Assembly: GCA_934255455.1 (NCBI GenBank)
Contig: CAKQNS010000002.1
Location: forward strand, 11,007-75,006
DNA: 64,000 nt
Direction of reading: 5' to 3'
From: an uncultured Alphaproteobacteria bacterium
GTDB taxonomy: Bacteria > Pseudomonadota > Alphaproteobacteria > Rs-D84
Part shown: positions 1,742 through 11,900 of the stretch, piece by piece
How the letters are laid out: every line of letters starts with the position of its first letter
Position numbering within the stretch: the stretch's first letter is position 1
Translations under genes and position numbers: made by a program
Notes under the pieces: model-generated
What the model was told of the DNA's origin: nothing
Seen by the model: the letters and a program-made list of their open reading frames with translations, nothing else
The model's database searches: none

Positions 1742-1768
1742 AAATGCGCCGATGGCGCATTTTTTATT
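1742..1768 (-). terminator. Intrinsic terminator (hairpin gcgccgatggcgc plus T-run) at the 3' end of family gene g1; part of the CTCTAAAAA-hairpin module
   Basis: GC hairpin flanked by an A-run and T-run immediately after stop codon 1764-1766 on the minus strand. Confidence 0.6.
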
Positions 1769-2195
1769 CTATCCAAATCGCGGCGTATGTGGTGGCATTT
1801 TGCCCACCAACCGGAATTTTTACATTACCCTTGGTCACGGTGACTTTACCATCGGTCTGGGATACATCGGTCACCACCGCACCCGTACCCGACGATGTGG
1901 AATCCAGCCCACTGATTGCTTCGGTCACGGCCTTTTGCGTCATTGCACCATCAGTGTTTGTACCTGTGGATGTATACAATTTGGTCACACCGGCCGTGGT
2001 ACCCGTACCCGTTGAATATGTCGTATCGGTTGCAGAAATAACAATTTTACCGGCATTCGCACCATTGGTTGGGGTTGAAACCGTGACATTATCCCCCGAA
2101 ACAATATTGGTTTTCGCCACAATATCCGCAAACGCCCCCGACCCCATAAACACGGCAACAAACAAACCGATAAAAATACCCCTAATAATTATCAT
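1764..2195 (-). CDS. Secreted Thr/Gly-rich protein, short member (g1) of the five-gene tandem family
   Basis: Signal peptide MIIIRGIFIGLFVAVFMGSGAFA. C-terminus …NATTYAAIWIE shares the Trp-containing C-terminal motif of the downstream paralogs. The ORF track starts at TTG 2210; an internal ATG at 2195 is the likely start. Confidence 0.5.
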   Translation of the reverse strand: MIIIRGIFIGLFVAVFMGSGAFADIVAKTNIVSGDNVTVSTPTNGANAGKIVISATDTTYSTGTGTTAGVTKLYTSTGTNTDGAMTQKAVTEAISGLDSTSSGTGAVVTDVSQTDGKVTVTKGNVKIPVGGQNATTYAAIWIE

Positions 2196-2282
2196 AGCCC
2201 TTGCATTCAAATATACACAATATTACCAAGACACATTCATAGTATGGCACCGCTGTCACGGCACCATACTATGCACGTTATA

Positions 2283-3341
2283 TTAACGACCGATATATTC
2301 CCAAACCAATGTTTGGGCACCACCCTCGGCAACTTTCAAGGTCAACGCATAATTACCAACCTTGGATAAATCATCGGTATTTTGTGCCAACTGTGTTGCC
2401 GAGATTTTACCCGCCGTGATAGCACTGTCGGCAATCTTTGCTGATGTGACATTTGCATCCGTAATCTTTGCGGTCGTCACGGCACTATCTGCCAATTTTT
2501 CAGTCGTGACATTTTTATCTGCAATCTTTGCGGTTGTGACATTTGCATCTGTAATCTTTGCTGTTGTCACGGCATTATCTGCCAGTTTTTCTGTTGTGAC
2601 ATTTTTATCTGCAATCTTTGCGGTCGTCACAGCATCGGCAGCCAATTTTGCAGCTGTCACATTTGCGTCTTTGATTTTTACTGTCGTCACAGCATCGGCA
2701 GCCAATTTTGCAGCTGTCACATTTGCGTCTTTGATTTTTACTGTTGTCACGGCATTATCTTCGATCATATCTGTTTTGATTTGACCAGTTATGATTTGAC
2801 CAGTGGCATTTGTGATAACGGCCAGGTTTTTATTTGCCTCCGTTTGGTTCTTATCAACCTTGCCATCAATCGAGTCTGCCAAATCTTTATTAACCGCATC
2901 AGCCGCATTTTTCGCAATTTCTTCGGCGACGGCAACGGTCGGGAACTTTACAGCCTTGTCGGTTGCATCTTTATTGTATGTTGTTTCTTTATTCGCAGAA
3001 TCTTCTTTGTCTTTTTTCAAACCATCAATTGCAGTTTTGTTTTCACCAATTGATGTTGTATGACCAGCAATTGCGTTTTTATTTGCTTCGATATCCTCTT
3101 TGATTGTTTTATCATCGTACGCAGTGCCCGTACCATCGATTGTGATTTTGCCATCAACAATTGTCACATCGATACCATTTGAACCGGCAAGATTTGCATC
3201 CGCCCCCCCAACTTTCAATGTGTCTTGTTTTGCCTTCAAACTCTCATCAACATACGTTGTTGCGGCGATATCTGCGCGGGCGGCACCGGCCGTCATAATT
3301 GCAATCATTGAAACTGCAAATATTCCCGATAATTTTTTCAT
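2283..3341 (-). CDS. Secreted repeat protein g2 of the tandem family (about 12 decapeptide repeats D-x-N/A-V-T-T-x-K-I/L-A)
   Basis: Start MKKLSGIF… at ATG 3341 with RBS AAGGAAAG. The first ~110 residues after the signal (…YVDESLKAKQDTLKVGGADANLAGSNGIDV…VKFPTVAVAEEIAKNAADAV) are nearly identical to g3. A 30-bp tandem repeat array encodes NAVTTVKIKDANVTAAKLAAD-type units. C-terminus GNYALTLKVAEGGAQTLVWEYIGR. Confidence 0.75.
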   Translation of the reverse strand: MKKLSGIFAVSMIAIMTAGAARADIAATTYVDESLKAKQDTLKVGGADANLAGSNGIDVTIVDGKITIDGTGTAYDDKTIKEDIEANKNAIAGHTTSIGENKTAIDGLKKDKEDSANKETTYNKDATDKAVKFPTVAVAEEIAKNAADAVNKDLADSIDGKVDKNQTEANKNLAVITNATGQIITGQIKTDMIEDNAVTTVKIKDANVTAAKLAADAVTTVKIKDANVTAAKLAADAVTTAKIADKNVTTEKLADNAVTTAKITDANVTTAKIADKNVTTEKLADSAVTTAKITDANVTSAKIADSAITAGKISATQLAQNTDDLSKVGNYALTLKVAEGGAQTLVWEYIGR

Positions 3342-3418
3342 TTTTCTTTCCTTTGCTTTCATTTATCAAAATTTATGCCATGGCACGCCAAACACGTACC
3401 ACGGCACTCGGTTATTTA

Positions 3419-4279
3419 TTATTCACCTGTAGCCGGGTTTTCATTCTCGGCGCGTTCAATAACTTCCCATGCGTATGCGGCGTTGTTATATGTCAAAACA
3501 CACTTGTTTGTCGGATTCTCACATTCGCCTGCTGGCTTTGGAATCGCTTCGTTAGCGGTTTTTTGTGCGGCATCCGCAGCGGACTTTGCTGTGGCGGCAT
3601 CCTCTACCCCCTTGTCTGCCTGGGTCTTGGCCTCTGTAATTTTTCCATCCAACGCAGTGTCGGCCGCAGTGTACGCATTTGTAATCGTGGTTGTTGCCGC
3701 GTCAATTTTATAATCAACCGAGCCCTCGGTGGTTTTATCGGCGTTCAATTTTGTAATTGCACTTGTATTTGTGCCAATGTTTGTTTCATTGGTGGAAACG
3801 CGCCCTTCCAATGTCGTTAAATCGGTTGAAACCGCATCAGCCGCATTTTTCGCAATTTCTTCGGCAACAGCAACGGTCGGGAACTTTACACCCTTGTCGG
3901 TTGCATCTTTATTGTATGTTGTTTCTTTATTCGCAGAATCTTCTTTGTCTTTTTTCAAACCATCAATTGCAGTTTTGTTTTCACCAATTGACGTTGTATG
4001 ACCAGCAATTGCGTTTTTATTTGCTTCGATATCCGCCTTGATTGTTTTATCATCGTACGCAGTGCCCGTACCATCGATTGTGATTTTGCCATCAACAATT
4101 TTCACATCGATACCATTTGAACCAGCAAGATTTGCATCCGCCCCCTCAACTTTCAATGTGTCTTGCTTTTTGCCGACCTCTTGGTCAACATATCCACGCG
4201 ATGCAACGGCGGCGTCGGCGCTGTTTGCGGCGACAATCCCCAACATTACGGTAAATATACCTGCGGTTAATTTTTTCAT
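3419..4279 (-). CDS. Secreted protein g3 of the tandem family
   Basis: Start MKKLTAGIF… with signal peptide. Same 5' upstream sequence (ttttttcatttttctttcctttc) as g2. Shared N-terminal domain with g2. C-terminus IPKPAGECENPTNKCVLTYNNAAYAWEVIE matches the C-terminal box of g4. Confidence 0.75.
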   Translation of the reverse strand: MKKLTAGIFTVMLGIVAANSADAAVASRGYVDQEVGKKQDTLKVEGADANLAGSNGIDVKIVDGKITIDGTGTAYDDKTIKADIEANKNAIAGHTTSIGENKTAIDGLKKDKEDSANKETTYNKDATDKGVKFPTVAVAEEIAKNAADAVSTDLTTLEGRVSTNETNIGTNTSAITKLNADKTTEGSVDYKIDAATTTITNAYTAADTALDGKITEAKTQADKGVEDAATAKSAADAAQKTANEAIPKPAGECENPTNKCVLTYNNAAYAWEVIERAENENPATGE

Positions 4280-4318
4280 TTTTCTTTCCTTTCTTTTTTT
4301 ATTGTTTTTTTAATTTGT

Positions 4319-5515
4319 TTATTCCAACGGTTCTGTCACATCCATCCAGTATGGGTTGCCATCCTTATCAACCGACAACACGCAACGTCCGGATTCGGCC
4401 GTGCAATTAACGCCTGGTTTCGGTACCGCGTATGCGGTCACGGCCTTGACGGATGTGTATTTGGTTGTGGAATCTTTGTCGGCGGTCGAAATCGCATCAA
4501 CACGGTTGGTGGTCTTTTCAACGCCATTTAATTCCGTCGTGATGTCGTTTTTGGTTGCCAAATCAGAAATTTTTGTTGTGGACATTTCATATTGCCCGGT
4601 TGCATTCACGGTTGCGATGCCGCCCGCGGTTTCGGCGGTCACACCGGTGACCTTGTCTGCCTTGGCCGCGACGGTGGTCGCCACGCCATCAATACGGGTG
4701 CCCAATGCGGTGTCGGCCTCGGTCAATGTGCTGACAGAATCGTCAACCAATGTATTCACCGCCTTGGCCGTTGGATATTGGTCGTCGGTCGAGGCCGCCG
4801 AAATTGTTGTCGTTTTGTTCGATACATCTTCCTTGCCCGCGACAGATGTTTTTAACGATGAAATATCGGTTTTATTCGTGTCAACCTGGGTCGATACGGT
4901 GCTCAACGCGGTTGCCGTGGCCAAATCGGTAATTTTGGTCGAAGAGGCTTCGTATTGGCCGCTTGCGTTCACGGTTGCGATGCCACCGGTGTTCGCCTCG
5001 GTCATACCAGAAACTTTATCAGCCTTGGCCGCCAATGCGTCGCCCATGTCGCCCGCGACAATTTGCGCAACTTTGTCTTCGGTAAATTTAACGATTGCAC
5101 CAACCGATGGATACAGTGTGCCCGACGCCTTGTTCTGGTCGGTAATTTCGGTTGCCTTGTTTGATGTATCTTCTTTGCCGGTCACGGCTTCTTGTAATGC
5201 GGCGACATTTGTTTCGGTCGTGCCAACACGCGTTGTCAAACCGTTCACCGTATTGTTGGTTGTTGTCAATGCCGCATTTGTTGCCAAATCGTCAATCTTG
5301 GTTGTTGAAACCTGGTATTGGCCATTTGCGTCAACCGTTGCGATGTTGCCGGCATTGTCGCCAACATTTGCAACCACGTTCGCCTTGGTGCCCGCCAAAT
5401 TATCAACATAGGCCTGGCTGGCAATTCGTTTTGCCGCCCCATCGGCCGCAGACGCCGCACCAACCGACATGATTGCCGCCATAAATCCAGAAAATGCGAT
5501 ATTATTTATTTTCAT
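4319..5515 (-). CDS. Secreted protein g4 of the tandem family
   Basis: Signal peptide MKINNIAFSGFMAAIMSVGAASA. ASQAYVDNLAGTK N-box. Repeated GIATVNASGQYE(A/M)S(S/T)TKI(T/S)DLAT units. C-terminus YAVPKPGVNCTAESGRCVLSVDKDGNPYWMDVTEP. RBS AAGGAAAAAA. Confidence 0.75.
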   Translation of the reverse strand: MKINNIAFSGFMAAIMSVGAASAADGAAKRIASQAYVDNLAGTKANVVANVGDNAGNIATVDANGQYQVSTTKIDDLATNAALTTTNNTVNGLTTRVGTTETNVAALQEAVTGKEDTSNKATEITDQNKASGTLYPSVGAIVKFTEDKVAQIVAGDMGDALAAKADKVSGMTEANTGGIATVNASGQYEASSTKITDLATATALSTVSTQVDTNKTDISSLKTSVAGKEDVSNKTTTISAASTDDQYPTAKAVNTLVDDSVSTLTEADTALGTRIDGVATTVAAKADKVTGVTAETAGGIATVNATGQYEMSTTKISDLATKNDITTELNGVEKTTNRVDAISTADKDSTTKYTSVKAVTAYAVPKPGVNCTAESGRCVLSVDKDGNPYWMDVTEPLE

Positions 5516-5560: not shown

Positions 5561-6973
5561 CTATGGTTCCACAATTACAATCTCGGACCACGCGCCACCA
5601 CCATTACCATCGGCCGCAAATATATAGTTGCCAGCCGTTTCGGGCGCCGTCATGCCACCAGTTGCCGAAATGGTATCGCCATCAATCGTGATGTTCGTGC
5701 CCGCGGTCAATTTATTTTGCTTGCCCGCCAACGCGGTGTTGATGTCGGTCTTGGTGTAATATTGGTCCGCATCAAATGTACCAGATTGGGTAATTTTCGC
5801 ATCAACCTCGGTCTTGGTATATGCGTCACCAATGCCATATCCCGCCAGGGTTGTTGCCTTGTCCGCCTTGGTCGCGATTGATGCAGTGTTTGCCTCTATC
5901 GCGGCGGTATTTGCATCTATGGCATTTTTATTTGCACTGATGTTTGTGGCATTCGCACCAATCAATGTACGCACCGCCGTGTCGTCATACGATTTCGCCG
6001 AAATGGTATCGCCATCAATCGTGATGTTCGTACCCGCGGTCAATTTATTTTGTTTGTCCGCCAATGCCGTGTTCGTTTCGGTCTTGGTATAATATTGTTC
6101 CGCATCAAATGTACCAGAATCACGGATTTTCGCATCAACTTCGGCCTTGGTATAAACATCCGTCTTGGCCGCATAGATTGCCGACAGTGCACTGATTGCA
6201 TCTGCAATCGCGGTGTTCATTTGCTCTGTTGTGGAATATGCACTTAAATCCGCCGGAGTACCGGGTTCACCCGCCGGCCCCTGGGGCCCAGTGATTTCCG
6301 CCTTGGAAATCAGAATTCGCCAATCAGCATCACCCTCGCCCGCATAGCGCCATAACAGGTCGTTGTCATTTGAACCAATTTCAACCTCGCGCCCATCCTG
6401 GCCGGCGATGCTGCCTATTTCGTCTTTTAACCCATCAACATCAACATAAATTTGATTTGTTGTATTATCAATTACAATAAAACCGTTCAGTGTCGGTTCC
6501 AGCGTATCTTGTTTGTCACCCAATTGGCTTGATAAACTATCGTCCGCTTGGTGCAGTTCCTCGGTATCGCGCTGTAATTGGTCAATTTGACGACGCAAAT
6601 CCGCCACAACCGACGGATCAGTTGTACCACCTTCGCCCGGTTCCGGACGCACAGAACTGCCCCCGCTGACGGATGTGGTGCCCCCCAAATATTTTCCAAT
6701 AGATAAACGCGGTGTTGTTGCCACACGACCCGTTGTTGTTGCGGCCACCGGCTTTGCCGTCGCCGTCGTGCCGGTTTTACCAGCCGTTGGTGTCACACGC
6801 AATGACCCCGCACGCGCCGCACCGGTCGATGTTGCATTTGATGCGGCCGACGCACTGGAGTATGTTCCAGCCCCACCCAGCGAACGCACCGACGATGCCG
6901 CGTCAGCCCCGGAAACCGTGGCGCACACCGCACACACAATCGCAAGTATCGATATTTTGGTGTTATTTTTCAT
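5561..6973 (-). CDS. Secreted protein g5 of the tandem family; collagen-like triplet and phage-tail-fibre-like repeats
   Basis: Signal peptide MKNNTKISILAIVCAVCATVSGADA. KQDTL box as in g2/g3. …WRILISKAEITGPQGPAGEPGTP… Two ~55-aa direct repeats YTK(A/T)EVDAKI…GTFDA(E/D)QYYTKT…LA(D/G)KQNKLTAGTNITIDGDTISA. C-terminus …GGGAWSEIVIVEP. Confidence 0.75.
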   Translation of the reverse strand: MKNNTKISILAIVCAVCATVSGADAASSVRSLGGAGTYSSASAASNATSTGAARAGSLRVTPTAGKTGTTATAKPVAATTTGRVATTPRLSIGKYLGGTTSVSGGSSVRPEPGEGGTTDPSVVADLRRQIDQLQRDTEELHQADDSLSSQLGDKQDTLEPTLNGFIVIDNTTNQIYVDVDGLKDEIGSIAGQDGREVEIGSNDNDLLWRYAGEGDADWRILISKAEITGPQGPAGEPGTPADLSAYSTTEQMNTAIADAISALSAIYAAKTDVYTKAEVDAKIRDSGTFDAEQYYTKTETNTALADKQNKLTAGTNITIDGDTISAKSYDDTAVRTLIGANATNISANKNAIDANTAAIEANTASIATKADKATTLAGYGIGDAYTKTEVDAKITQSGTFDADQYYTKTDINTALAGKQNKLTAGTNITIDGDTISATGGMTAPETAGNYIFAADGNGGGAWSEIVIVEP

Positions 6974-7035: not shown

Positions 7036-7767
7036 TTAAAATTCGTATCTGACGCCAACCGAAATAGAATTATCCCAAATCATGTCGATTTTGTTTTCAA
7101 AATTGCCGTATGTCGGGGTGTTATCCTTGATACCAATGCTGTGTTTTGTGCCCGTCATACCCGCCAAACGATAACGCAAATCTAATATCAAATTGTCGTC
7201 CAATTTGGTTGAATATCCAACTGCGATGTTCGCCATTGGCGCAATTGATGTTTTGCTGCGACTGGTTCCATCGGAATATATATTTGCAAATTTAACATCC
7301 AATGTTGTCATTGGCGCGGCAATACCCAAACCACCACCAACATACACGCCGTTCAAGAAATCATAGTATCCGTTGGCCGAAATATATGGGATTTGCAGGC
7401 TGAATTCTGAACCTGCATCTTTGTCTTCGAAATGACCGATGTATCCGGCTTCGACCTCGCCCCGCCAGAAATAGCCAAAATGGCGACCGGCGGCCAAACT
7501 GCCCCCGAATACGGGTTCAAACGAATAACTGTCACTGTTGGACGACAAATCGGCACCCGCCGCCAACAAATCAGACGAGTATTTATTCTTCCAATTCAGG
7601 AAACTAATCTCGGCACGAGCGGTCATATACCAGCCTGTTTTTGCCTTGTCCGTGTAATCGTATGTCACATTATAACCGCCACGACGATCCGGTTGAATAT
7701 AGCTGGGCGCCGCGGTGGCCGCGGTTGTCATACCAACCAGCACAAACAACGAAACTAATTTTTTCAT
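7036..7767 (-). CDS. Outer-membrane beta-barrel protein (porin/OmpA-like barrel family)
   Basis: Signal peptide MKKLVSLFVLVGMTTAATAA. Alternating amphipathic beta-strand pattern. C-terminal …SVGVRYEF ends in the aromatic residue typical of OMP barrels. Strong RBS AAGGAG before ATG 7767. Confidence 0.65.
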   Translation of the reverse strand: MKKLVSLFVLVGMTTAATAAPSYIQPDRRGGYNVTYDYTDKAKTGWYMTARAEISFLNWKNKYSSDLLAAGADLSSNSDSYSFEPVFGGSLAAGRHFGYFWRGEVEAGYIGHFEDKDAGSEFSLQIPYISANGYYDFLNGVYVGGGLGIAAPMTTLDVKFANIYSDGTSRSKTSIAPMANIAVGYSTKLDDNLILDLRYRLAGMTGTKHSIGIKDNTPTYGNFENKIDMIWDNSISVGVRYEF

Positions 7768-8343: not shown

Positions 8344-8441
8344 AAAGTTCAAATACCAAAGTGCAAAGTTCAAATAATGTGTGCGCCGGATGACGCACTG
8401 CTTTATTCATTTGAACTTTGAACTCTGAACTTTGAACTTTT
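8343..8441. repeat. ~98-bp palindromic repeat element: AAAGTTCAAA-type arms around central hairpin gtgcgccggatgacgcac
   Basis: Imperfect inverted arms (aaagttcaaataccaaagtgcaaagttcaaataa … ttattcatttgaactttgaactctgaactttgaacttt). About 95% identical to the copy at 11341-11437. Confidence 0.8.
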
Positions 8442-8480: not shown

Positions 8481-9272
8481 ATGGAAGAAAAGACAGCGAT
8501 TTCATTTGCAAATGTGGCCGCCGCGTACGACGGTGGGCGCGATGTTTTAACAGATGTTTCATTTAACATCAGTGCGGGGGCATTCTATTTCCTATCGGGC
8601 GCGTCGGGCGCGGGTAAAACCACCCTATTACGACTGATATACCAATTACACCGACCATCACGCGGGCAAATTAAATTATTCGGTCAACCAACCGACGGAA
8701 TTTCGCGCGACGATATTGCGCGCCTGCGTCACAAAATGGCGATTGTATTCCAAGAATATTCTTTGCTGTCACATTTGACGGTGTTTGACAACATTGCATT
8801 ACCGTTGCGTGTGCGCGGCCTGCCCGATGATAAAATAAAAAAATTGGTGGCCAAGGTTCTGGAATGGGTTGGCCTGGCCAAATATGCCGATGCAAACCCA
8901 ATGGCGCTGTCGGGCGGTCAACAACAACGCGTATCGGTTGCGCGTGCGATTATTAGCCAACCGGCGATATTACTGGCCGACGAACCGACCGGAAATCTGG
9001 ACGACGAAAACGCATCGCGGTTGATGGAACTGTTTATACAAATGAACAAAATGTTCGGCACAACGATAATTTTGGCCACCCATAATCAAAAATTGATGGA
9101 CACCTATAAATTCCCGGTTATTCACGTGGAAAACCATCGGGTTGGCTTTATTGGTGGCACGAAAAAGGCCCCTGCCCCGGAATCTGATGTGAAAAAGGTA
9201 TGGAAGGGCCCCAAGCCACAAAACTATTTTTCAGAATTATCAAAACAATTTGACGATATTGGGAACGCGTAA
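8481..9272 (+). CDS. ftsE: Cell-division ABC transporter ATPase FtsE
   Basis: Walker A GASGAGKTT, ABC signature LSGGQQQRV, Walker B LLADEPTGNLD. Stop overlaps the ftsX start. The ORF track begins at TTG 8445; ATG 8481 is the likely start. Confidence 0.85.
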   Translation: MEEKTAISFANVAAAYDGGRDVLTDVSFNISAGAFYFLSGASGAGKTTLLRLIYQLHRPSRGQIKLFGQPTDGISRDDIARLRHKMAIVFQEYSLLSHLTVFDNIALPLRVRGLPDDKIKKLVAKVLEWVGLAKYADANPMALSGGQQQRVSVARAIISQPAILLADEPTGNLDDENASRLMELFIQMNKMFGTTIILATHNQKLMDTYKFPVIHVENHRVGFIGGTKKAPAPESDVKKVWKGPKPQNYFSELSKQFDDIGNA

Positions 9273-10111
9273 TGAAAACACCTGTTGTATTTTCGCTGGT
9301 ACGCCAGCAATCTGTATTTATGACGGCAATTATGTCATTGCTGACATTTTTGGCGGTGCTGTCGCTGGGAATTGGATTGGCCATTGGTACCGGCGTTATG
9401 CGTTGGAATACCCAGTGGGATTTATTTGCAACGGTTCAAATAACCGATACAAAAAATGCCGCATCGGTAAAGCAAATTATTACCGATAATCACGACAAAA
9501 TGGCATCTGTTGATGAAATCACAACAACCGAAATGCAAAATTTAATGCGGCCGTGGCTGTCATCGGGTGGTGATACACTGAAAAAATACCTGCCACAAAT
9601 GTATGAAATAAAATTCAAATCTAAATCCGATTTGCAATATGTTGAACAGCAAATTTCAAATCGCGCGCGTTTTCTGACACATGCCAACGCGTTAAAGACA
9701 TCGACAAACGCGGGATGGTATTTGATTCTGATTTCAACACTGGTTTTGACAATGGTGTTGGGCACGATTGGCGTATGCATATCGTACATCGCACGCAATA
9801 CCGCAATGCTGCATAAACGCGAATTAGAAATATTAAACCAAATTGGCGCATCCGATTCGTTTGTTGCCCGCCAAATGCAAATCATTGTGGCAAAAATATC
9901 TGCAACATCGGGCCTGGTTGGGTTTATGGCGGCGGCATTGATTTTAATGATGGTGCTGGGCGCCGCACGCACCGCACGGGTTGGACTGATGGCGATGCTG
10001 GGGTTATCTGGGTGGGGATGGTTTGCATTGGCGTTGTTGCCGGTGGTAATTATGTTTTTCGCAATGGAAATTTCACGCCGTACGACATTAAAGATTCTTG
10101 AAAATAATTGA
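9272..10111 (+). CDS. ftsX: Cell-division permease FtsX
   Basis: 279 aa with four TM segments in FtsX topology (N-terminal TM, periplasmic loop, three C-terminal TM). Translationally coupled to ftsE. Confidence 0.75.
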   Translation: MKTPVVFSLVRQQSVFMTAIMSLLTFLAVLSLGIGLAIGTGVMRWNTQWDLFATVQITDTKNAASVKQIITDNHDKMASVDEITTTEMQNLMRPWLSSGGDTLKKYLPQMYEIKFKSKSDLQYVEQQISNRARFLTHANALKTSTNAGWYLILISTLVLTMVLGTIGVCISYIARNTAMLHKRELEILNQIGASDSFVARQMQIIVAKISATSGLVGFMAAALILMMVLGAARTARVGLMAMLGLSGWGWFALALLPVVIMFFAMEISRRTTLKILENN

Positions 10112-10630: not shown

Positions 10631-11341
10631 ATGATGATAAAGACCGTGATATTTAAATTAGTATTGGCAATATATTATGTCGTGTGGTCACCAATTATTT
10701 TGATTGGATTGGTGTCCAAACCGCTGAACGATTTTCTGGTGCGGACATGTGCCGGTGGCGTTTTAGTGCTGGCCCGATTGATTGTTGGCATAAAATATGA
10801 AATACACTGTCCCCCAACCGAAGAAAACGGCATTCCATGCACGCCAAATGATAACGCGCGTCTGGACGGCAAGGCCATAATTGCCGCCAAACACATGTCT
10901 ATATTGGAAATAGCCATTTTGGCGACGCATATTCCAAATTCTTTTTTCATTGTAAAACGTGAAATTATATGGTTCCCAATTTACGGGTGGGCGTTTTGGC
11001 GTATGGGCCTGCAACCGGTGAACCGTGCGCGTGGCGCGACAAATATGCACAAATTGGCAACCAATGTGGCCGAAAAAATTATGGATGGCAAAATTCTGAT
11101 TATTTTCCCCGAGGGCACGCGTGTAAAACCAGGCCAACATATTTCATTGAAACGCGGCCTGTTGTACCTGGCCCATGAATTAAAATTACCCATTTTGCCG
11201 GTGGGAACCGATACAGGACTGTATTGGCCCAAACATGGCCGTATGCGTGGCGGCACCGCCAATGTTTGGTTTGAACCAATGCTGCCTTGCAACGCGTCAC
11301 TGGATGAAATCAGCGCAGCAATCAACCGCCACAGCGCATAA
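10631..11341 (+). CDS. plsC: 1-acyl-sn-glycerol-3-phosphate acyltransferase (LPLAT family)
   Basis: N-terminal TM; acyltransferase motifs (…AAKHMSILE… block I variant, FPEGTR block III, PILPVG block IV). Confidence 0.7.
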   Translation: MMIKTVIFKLVLAIYYVVWSPIILIGLVSKPLNDFLVRTCAGGVLVLARLIVGIKYEIHCPPTEENGIPCTPNDNARLDGKAIIAAKHMSILEIAILATHIPNSFFIVKREIIWFPIYGWAFWRMGLQPVNRARGATNMHKLATNVAEKIMDGKILIIFPEGTRVKPGQHISLKRGLLYLAHELKLPILPVGTDTGLYWPKHGRMRGGTANVWFEPMLPCNASLDEISAAINRHSA

Positions 11342-11437
11342 AAGTTCAAATACCAAAGTACAAAGTTCAAATAATGTGTGCGCCGAATGGCGCACTGCTT
11401 TATTCATTTGAACTTTGAACTCTGAACTTTGAACTTT
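11341..11437. repeat. Second full copy of the ~98-bp AAAGTTCAAA palindromic element (central hairpin gtgcgccgaatggcgcac)
   Basis: Near-identical to 8343-8441. Starts on the plsC stop codon. Confidence 0.8.
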
Positions 11438-11843: not shown

Positions 11844-11900
11844 CTATTCTCTATGCTCTATTATCTATGCTCTAAAAATGCGCCGTATGGCACATTTTTT
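11841..11900 (-). terminator. CTCTAAAAA-hairpin terminator module (copy b) at the 3' end of tolB
   Basis: catctattctctatgctctattatctatgctctaaaaatgcgccgtatggcacatttttt. Hairpin with one mismatch plus T-run. Abuts the nuclease start codon. Confidence 0.45.

Follow-up and report, generated by a model that had tools for sequence, protein, structure and literature searches.

Gene conversion between surface-protein genes is a familiar bacterial route to surface variation. Here we describe what is very probably a case of repeated gene conversion in five tandem genes, g1 to g5, which lie on a 64,000-nucleotide (nt) stretch of DNA, called the window below (contig CAKQNS010000002.1 of assembly GCA_934255455.1, positions 11,007 to 75,006). 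The host is an uncultured alphaproteobacterium of human-gut metagenomes (Hadza and others), and the element in question is a near-identical block of 340 base pairs (bp) that is carried by the adjacent genes g2 and g3. Among the fibrous surface proteins of Gram-negative bacteria, UspA1, UspA2 and UspA2H of Moraxella catarrhalis have interchangeable cassettes in common, with hybrid proteins as the result. Unlike g1-g5, in which no YadA-type membrane anchor was detected, the UspA proteins are trimeric autotransporters that carry one. Our literature search on the host lineage (RF32, gut Alphaproteobacteria) found nothing specific.

In the mga regulon of Group A Streptococcus, recombination between the neighbouring genes mrp, emm and enn generates chimeric genes, and emm-enn fusion, as in the emm4-enn chimera, removes one gene (PMC6321872; PMC9993116). 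The cluster studied here resembles mrp-emm-enn in its tandem, co-oriented paralogues for presumed fibrous, coiled-coil surface proteins, in the conserved signal peptide and C-terminus around variable repeat interiors, and in repeat-unit indels that give rise to length variants, such as g2 proteins of 352 and 332 amino acids (aa). However, the streptococcal proteins are Gram-positive, carry an LPXTG sortase anchor and are unrelated in sequence to g1-g5, whereas our cluster belongs to a Gram-negative alphaproteobacterium and its products end in a small C-terminal beta-hairpin, include some phage-tail-fibre-like modules and are only presumed to be located, and to function, at the surface. In Helicobacter pylori, intragenomic non-reciprocal recombination among babA, babB and babC yields chimeras whose junctions fall in conserved 5' and 3' segments (PMC4552749). 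These are likewise paralogous outer-surface protein genes, and locus occupancy varies between strains (PMC4552749). In contrast to g1-g5, the bab loci are dispersed and not adjacent, the Bab proteins are autotransporter-like outer-membrane protein (OMP) adhesins, and bab conversion moves a phase-variable CT repeat, whereas here only a run of seven G was created in g2. Protein-fragment shuffling is also documented in phages (PMC10684548). Phage tail-fibre and receptor-binding proteins resemble our proteins in having exchangeable repeat modules joined at conserved motifs, but g1-g5 are chromosomal, encode Sec-type signal peptides and have no phage neighbours, and their shared module lacks viral relatives. 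Of these three systems, the streptococcal and Helicobacter genes come closest to the cluster and tail-fibre shuffling offers an analogue for what the cassettes contain; none is a sequence relative.

A 340-bp block shared by g2 and g3

The two genes, the two copies of the block (hereafter the module) and the two translation starts are as follows.

2283..3341, minus strand: g2, 352 aa from the MKKL start, a type-A chimera with signal peptide, g3-type module, decapeptide repeats and C-terminal hairpin
3419..4279, minus strand: g3, 286 aa, with signal peptide, module, helical stalk and disulfide-bracketed C-terminal beta-hairpin
2892..3231, minus strand: module copy in g2 (recipient), g2 codons 38-150, absent from the type-B and type-C g2 of conspecific strains
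3830..4169, minus strand: module copy in g3 (donor), g3 codons 38-150, 82-100% identity between strains
3330..3354, minus strand: g2 ribosome-binding site, ATG and MKKL codons, a 25-nt exact match to g3
4268..4292, minus strand: g3 ribosome-binding site, ATG and MKKL codons, a 25-nt exact match to g2

The MKKL start of g2 is the one used in the gene calls of all related contigs. On the ungapped identity track, 2892-3231 and 3830-4169 (offset 938) match over 340 bp with 10 mismatches, which is 97.06% identity and well above 90%; blastn between the copies gave E = 8e-165. A first-pass annotation had described a near-identical segment of ~335 bp at ~96%, and its coordinates (2898-3235) do give ~96% identity, the maximal block being slightly longer and more similar. 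In g2 and g3 alike the block codes on the minus strand for ~113 aa, in agreement with the shared N-terminal domain of ~110 aa that had been proposed. Of its 10 differences, six are synonymous and fall at third codon positions; the other four change the amino acid (g2/g3: G45E, T60K, E82A, A130G). By blastn and tblastn across the whole 64-kb window, there are exactly two copies.

The borders are abrupt and the synonymous sites within them are homogenised: against 97.06% in the block, ungapped g2/g3 identity is 40% over the 98 nt upstream (signal-peptide codons) and 38% over the 100 nt downstream. The 3' halves of the two genes, said earlier to be unrelated, indeed have no BLAST similarity, yet their final beta-hairpin motifs, with W-E-x-I at the core, are alike. 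One of the substitutions in g2, GAG to GGG (E45G), produces a seven-G run on the coding strand (3203-3209), compared with five in g3 (4141-4147). The seven-G run is a possible slippage site, and no variation in its length was seen in seven loci with the window's type of g2.

A second, separate match joins the two genes. The exact 25 nt at 3330-3354 and 4268-4292, TAATTTTTTCATTTTTCTTTCCTTT on the plus strand, span the Shine-Dalgarno sequence AAAGGAAAG, the ATG and the MKKL codons. Since the gene for a nearby OMP likewise starts ATGAAAAAATTA, and since g2/g3 identity upstream of the match is 25%, this leader is best read as a common translation start and signal-peptide n-region that lies outside the conversion tract. 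The identical 5' leaders noted earlier are thus real as a 25-nt match, but the 23-mer then quoted is exact for g3 only, the last base in g2 being G.

g2 allele types and the origin of the module

Comparison with related strains, which the first-pass annotation had suggested, was made with 20 syntenic loci from related contigs; throughout them g3 had the module and g2 was polymorphic. The flanks of these loci are 94-99% identical to the window, which indicates that the strains are conspecific. The g3 module occurs in every strain examined, at 82-100% identity, and the second copy in the window's lineage only. At the g2 position we found at least three allele types, with an identical signal peptide, MKKLSGIFAVSMIAIMTAGAARADIA, in front; the three below are all common.

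Type A (the window): g3 module, decapeptide repeats and C-terminal hairpin; ~22 contigs
Type B: one or two 97-aa tail-fibre-like units and a Cys-containing C-terminus; ~38 contigs
Type C: another N-terminal part, decapeptide repeats and the type-A C-terminus; ~7 contigs

Two segments of the window are delimited by comparison with types B and C.

1928..3244, minus strand: allelic cassette with no DNA homology to type-B strains, comprising mature g2, the intergenic region and the first two-thirds of g1
2866..3245, minus strand: segment replacing ~200 nt of the closest type-C g2, made up of 18 nt, the 340-nt module and 22 nt (alignment to loci L016 and L010)

Against type-B strains, homology ends just after the YVD codons of g2 and returns in the last third of g1; in the reverse complement of the first 12 kb, blastn places the two breakpoints at 8757-8766 and at 10073. 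Against L016, the closest type-C locus, the window is 99% identical up to the YVD codons, after which ~380 nt with the module stand in place of ~200 nt of unrelated sequence. Homology restarts at GGCAAGGTTGAT; further on, the window has one inserted repeat unit of 60 nt and another stretch that is replaced, and identity is 95-99% through g1 and beyond. The tract is therefore absent from the recipient's orthologues, as type-B and type-C g2 lack it, and present in those of the donor, as all g3 genes have it. The window's g2 is a chimera of the g2 signal peptide, the g3 module and a type-C-like g2 backbone, and the transfer ran from g3 to g2.

Length variation of g2 was also observed. In L006 and L007 one of two identical 60-nt units is missing, which gives a protein of 332 aa; in the rest of the region compared, L007 does not differ from the window. 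In a protein of 330 aa in the type-C g2 cluster (P0207), 95 aa of the decapeptide-plus-DVQTSLGLADTALQAADI segment are duplicated internally, so that it too is a length variant made by unit duplication. Scaffold gaps of 100 N lie inside g2 in two loci (L003:6860-7900 and L009:6860-8010). Because the tandem 97-aa units evidently break short-read assembly, published metagenome-assembled genomes can be expected often to lack g2 or to have it truncated. Type-B g2 (L002:6942-7850) contains a 34-residue motif, YDDLDNKPTIPAAQVNSDWNST.GVSQILNKPT, which recurs at 85-94% amino acid identity in many viral contigs (IMG/VR loci L028, L032 and L035-L048). This points to a very conserved tail-fibre element common to the bacterial gene and phages.

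Probable repeated conversion at the diagnostic sites

At nine of the 10 sites where the g2 module differs from the resident g3, the base in g2 is one found in the g3 alleles of other strains (P ~5e-10 for nine of 10 under new mutation), and one such allele, P0005, carries both the g2-type A130 and AVNKDL. Hence the module first came from a g3 allele slightly unlike the resident one, in a tract that at first extended a few codons past the present block.

Across seven type-A loci the g3 module is invariant and the g2 module occurs as four haplotypes, written here over the 10 diagnostic sites (3228, 3208, 3186, 3163, 3099, 3097, 3054, 2953, 2931 and 2928).

H1, AGCC-AAA-CCC: window, L005, L006 and L007; 10 differences from g3
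H2, AGCC-GCG-CCC: L019; 7 differences from g3
H3, AGCC-AAA-GTT: L020; 7 differences from g3
H4, AGCC-GCG-GTT: L013; 4 differences from g3

The changes fall into two blocks of the g2 module.

3054..3099, minus strand: conversion block 2, sites 3099, 3097 and 3054; g3 state in L019 and L013
2928..2953, minus strand: conversion block 3, sites 2953, 2931 and 2928; g3 state in L020 and L013

In the window as in L005, L006, L007 and L020, block 2 still has its old g2 state, and so does block 3 in the loci other than L020 and L013. All four combinations of the two blocks occur, so that the g2 haplotypes fail the four-gamete test, as a mosaic recipient predicts; the changed blocks equal the resident g3, and there are no other substitutions. 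Because whole blocks switch to the resident g3 state in every combination, at least two further g3-to-g2 tracts are needed, of at least 46 and at least 26 nt. The direction of these later tracts is inferred from the invariance of g3.

A possible g3::g2 fusion in one contig

The contig L018 (GCA_900764675.1, 2,778 nt) begins with the 3' end of g4, followed by the g3 upstream region and N-terminus. It then switches from g3 to g2 between module nt 46 and 69 and proceeds through g2, g1 and the next gene, so that this g3::g2 fusion is without exactly 938 bp.

3163..3186, minus strand: crossover interval of the L018 fusion, with g3 up to module nt 46 and g2 from nt 69

The arrangement is the product expected from unequal crossover.

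Proposed mechanism and alternative explanations

We consider it highly probable that repeated g3-to-g2 gene conversion in secreted, fibre-like paralogues is the best explanation of the data as a whole, and the gene-conversion reading is strongly supported. It had already been offered in the first-pass annotation, and is borne out by the chimera, by the g3-to-g2 direction and by the patchwork haplotypes. The block would represent one structural repeat unit of g3 that was copied into a type-C-like g2 by non-reciprocal homologous recombination, with a left junction near the conserved YVD codons, a right junction near the AAD-(I/S)-x-GKVD codons and, as its donor, a g3 allele that resembled P0005 or L009 and differed a little from the resident one. 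On at least two later occasions, tracts of tens to ~200 nt in the g2 copy would have been replaced by resident g3 sequence, which keeps the copies at 97-99% identity. The direct repeats could also support unequal crossover, fusing g3 to g2 with deletion of 938 bp; RecA-type recombination is the presumed enzymology. Within the population, the g2-g1 stretch behaves as a replaceable cassette, in which mature proteins are unrelated while the flanks are 94-99% identical and the signal peptide is identical. Two g2-g1 cassette types are built from phage-tail-fibre-like repeats, and phages, the host immune system or competitors may exert a diversifying pressure that maintains the variation. Of the variants and deletions that the repeat, as a recombination substrate, had earlier been proposed to generate, the variants are attested by the four patchwork haplotypes; for deletion there is the one L018 contig with its 938-bp loss, possibly an assembler jump.

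Several observations weigh against parts of this account. No sampled g3 allele and no type-C g2 matches the 18 nt (ESLKAK) that directly precede the block on its 5' side, so the original donor and junction are incompletely reconstructed. The L018 arrangement, seen in one contig, may be an assembler jump through the repeat, given that the contig is short. The import of g3-like DNA into g2 from other strains could also produce the later tracts, but is less parsimonious. In none of the genes compared does dN/dS, the ratio of non-synonymous (dN) to synonymous (dS) substitution rates, exceed 1, and positive selection is thus not demonstrated. As for the fibres, the AlphaFold2 models are weak (predicted local distance difference test, pLDDT, of 70 for g3 and 54 for g2), a Foldseek search of the PDB with the g3 model returned no match at E <= 0.001, and the surface exposure and fibre assembly of the g1-g5 products are inferred.

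Recent tandem duplication, in which g2 and g3 would be young duplicates and the block a part that has not diverged or is held by purifying selection, is in keeping with genes that are adjacent and co-oriented, whose N-terminal regions are equal in length and whose blocks and start codons are both offset by 938. It is nevertheless very unlikely, as identity drops from 97% to ~40% within a few bases on both sides, hardly any synonymous site of the block differs, a pattern that selection on the protein cannot account for, conspecific strains with flanks 94-99% identical have a g2 without the module, and the g2 copy is a patchwork of g3 states. The segmental duplication once proposed as the other possible source of the repeat was set aside on the ~40% DNA identity around the block and the conspecific g2 alleles that lack the module. 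Since g2 and g3 are old, diverged paralogues and such alleles exist, the block entered an existing g2 and did not arise with it by gene duplication. We give hardly any credence to an artefact in which a metagenomic assembler collapsed or mis-joined strain variants and so made a false second copy. The source is indeed a metagenome-assembled genome, g2 contains 100-N gaps in L003 and L009, and the short contig L018 may be a repeat-induced mis-join. However, three pipelines, SPAdes and MEGAHIT among them, assembled both copies with unique junctions on either side from different samples; the contigs concerned measure 275-800 kb, with coverage of 37x to 176x, and the copies differ at fixed diagnostic sites. 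The same 10 differences in L005, L006 and L007, from independent assemblies and samples, indicate that the repeat is genuine and contradict the artefact against which the first-pass annotation had cautioned.

The clear exchange of the g2-g1 stretch between strains as a cassette, the states of H1 g2 that are typical of other strains' g3 alleles, and the ESLKAK junction without a sampled source would all suit a single horizontal import, with the whole type-A g2 made elsewhere and brought into the lineage once by allelic replacement. We find this improbable as the full explanation: it leaves H2-H4 unexplained, for their changed blocks equal the resident g3 exactly, in four combinations and with g3 invariant, and repeated local g3-to-g2 transfer is therefore needed. 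Import and local conversion are complementary, and this for the first step only. A programmed system of antigenic variation, in the manner of Neisseria pilE/pilS, Borrelia vlsE or Anaplasma msp2, with g3 as donor cassette and g2 as expression site, can be almost dismissed. The transfer is apparently unidirectional from locus to locus, the recipient has constant ends and a variable interior, and the proteins are secreted, all as such a system would have it. But there are two copies only in the 64 kb, with no silent, promoterless or truncated cassettes, so that the single expression site with several silent, incomplete donor cassettes that typifies pilE/pilS, vlsE and msp2/p44 is not what we found. 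Both g2 and g3 are complete, each having its own ribosome-binding site and signal peptide, and no associated recombinase or G4-type element was seen. Only four haplotypes are present among ~22 contigs from many samples, which suggests rare events.

Beyond repeated gene conversion, we can tentatively suggest, as a possibility that is more doubtful than not, that the cluster beside pal encodes an undescribed class of secreted fibres of gut Alphaproteobacteria with exchangeable stalks and that g2-g1 is a dedicated hypervariable site altering surface identity. Invariant N- and C-terminal assembly motifs would then enclose a freely exchangeable stalk made partly of phage-tail-fibre modules, the conserved signal-peptide and YVD codons and the 3' end of g1 would serve as recombination arms, and modules might be drawn from g3, from other strains and from phages. 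If this were true, the fibres could act, for example, as a phage receptor or decoy, or in evasion of immunoglobulin A.

Selection and significance

Compared with the window, g3 has dN of 0.046-0.097 and dN/dS of 0.21-0.37, and g4 and g5 have dN/dS of 0.13-0.24. In the flanking pal, VTT-domain, rbfA and OMP genes, dN is <= 0.026 and dN/dS mostly <= 0.1. Given their higher dN and dN/dS, the fibre genes evolve at the protein level far more quickly than the genes around them.

The mechanism is well known from streptococcal emm/enn and Helicobacter bab; the protein family has not been described before. Since it is a textbook mechanism, the locus is a new instance and not a new principle. What it offers is a population-resolved case of ongoing gene conversion, and possibly of unequal crossover, in an uncultured gut bacterium from public metagenome assemblies alone. 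The g5-g1 cluster would be this species' fast-evolving, strain-distinguishing surface locus, of use for typing strains in gut datasets, those of the Hadza included. The case also serves as a warning that assemblers break or mis-join at this cluster. The g3 family, with 774 detectable relatives, is a candidate for new surface fibres whose building blocks are found in the tail fibres of phages as well.

Protein family and possible tail-fibre relatedness

The relatives of g3 have a conserved N- and C-terminus (IPxP...C...KCVL...Y-x-W-E-V-I-E-R) and a highly variable middle, and are named solely 'hypothetical protein [Alphaproteobacteria bacterium]'. In an alignment of 47 sequences the two terminal motifs, both carried by g3, are invariant or nearly so; g2 has the N-terminal family motif, and its C-terminal hairpin is a Cys-less variant. 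We found no Pfam or NCBIfam model and no solved structure for the g3 family, and the shared module had no match in Pfam, NCBIfam, PHROG, PDB or viral contigs. A PDB sequence search returned nothing for g3 and weak repeat matches for g2 (DotG and designed repeat proteins, E = 5e-6 or worse). In the AlphaFold2 model of g3, long helices lead to a small terminal beta-hairpin. The three 121-aa units of g4 can be aligned to the module from K-x-D to the (Y/F)P(S/T)V...AV motif, and the module's predicted secondary structure is alike in the g3 and g2 models; on these grounds it is about one structural unit of the g3 family.

Possible relatedness to tail fibres lies elsewhere in g2. Residues 241-322 match the tail-fibre family PHROG 28766 (E = 5.9e-39); this match is confined to the C-terminal half, outside the shared module, and g2 alone among the genes has a strong family match. 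The decapeptide array of g2 also matches many metagenomic decapeptide-repeat proteins and annotated phage tail fibres, and it scores 20.8 bits against Pfam Decapeptide (PF25296), whose cut-off is 45.

2422..2760, minus strand: decapeptide (30-nt) repeat array of g2, with an exact 60-nt tandem duplication at 2632-2751

Three other identities fit the data poorly. A pentapeptide-repeat protein is contradicted by the scores (Pentapeptide_4, 12.3 bits against a cut-off of 38; NCBIfam PipB2, 20 against 354). A trimeric autotransporter adhesin should have a YadA-type anchor, which Pfam and NCBIfam did not detect in g1-g5, and the C-terminus is a beta-hairpin of ~20 aa in the models. An origin as a phage or prophage structural module does not fit the chromosomal housekeeping context in all loci or the signal peptides of the proteins.

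Genomic setting of the cluster

The genes g1-g5 are in tandem on the minus strand, all beginning with signal-peptide-like sequences; in g2, g3 and g4 the signal peptide is followed by A-x-x-Y-V-D. The features not yet listed are these.

1764..2195, minus strand: g1, secreted paralogue of 143 aa, its N-terminal two-thirds part of the swapped cassette
4319..5515, minus strand: g4, 398 aa, three 121-aa units with a layout homologous to the module
5561..6973, minus strand: g5, 470 aa, the first gene of the cluster, with two 111-aa units and a promoter-like site at 7023-6994
7036-7767, minus strand: outer-membrane beta-barrel gene (open reading frame list)
3375..3407, minus strand: hairpin with a 14-bp stem between g3 and g2, 100% conserved in L016
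2238..2273, minus strand: hairpin with a 16-bp stem between g2 and g1 (promoter/terminator scan)

The scans for promoters and terminators differed little or not at all from what shuffled sequence would give, and of their output only the two long hairpins were relied on. The setting is chromosomal, between pal/ftsEX and rbfA/lepA. Past the OMP gene come pal, ftsE and ftsX (plus strand) and tolB (minus strand), and in no locus were phage genes found nearby, the neighbours being chromosomal housekeeping genes.

Repeat units also shape the other members of the cluster. Three 363-nt units make up g4, and g5 holds two 333-nt units that are 89% identical. Across strains, protein lengths are 470, 485, 491 and 557 aa for g5, 387, 398, 402, 426 and 441 aa for g4, and 139, 143 and 149 aa for g1. 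Between the window and L005, g4 has 32 substitutions, 17 of them clustered at g4 nt 45-140. The seemingly uniform g4 identity of 97.33% between type-A strains proved to consist of these 32 real substitutions, and further upstream of g4 an indel in g5 shifted the ungapped comparison. The length variants of g4 and g5, together with the clustered g4 substitutions, suggest further recombination tracts. At residues ~230-241 of g5, after a Ser/Ala/Gly/Thr-rich N-terminal region, a few residues are collagen-like, GPQGPAGEPGTP, a kind of sequence that phage fibres commonly contain.

Two further repeats were seen around the cluster. A palindromic intergenic element of ~97 nt with AAAGTTCAAA-type repeats occurs at 8344-8440 and 11341-11437 (97% identical), with a partial copy at 1464-1521; its sites are after pal, after an acyltransferase gene and after the VTT-domain gene, and it looks like a repetitive extragenic palindromic (REP) or miniature inverted-repeat transposable element (MITE) repeat. 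An exact 29-nt repeat, TCTATTATCTATGCTCTAAAAATGCGCCG, is found at 1723-1751 and 11857-11885, beside terminator-like hairpins downstream of g1 and near tolB.

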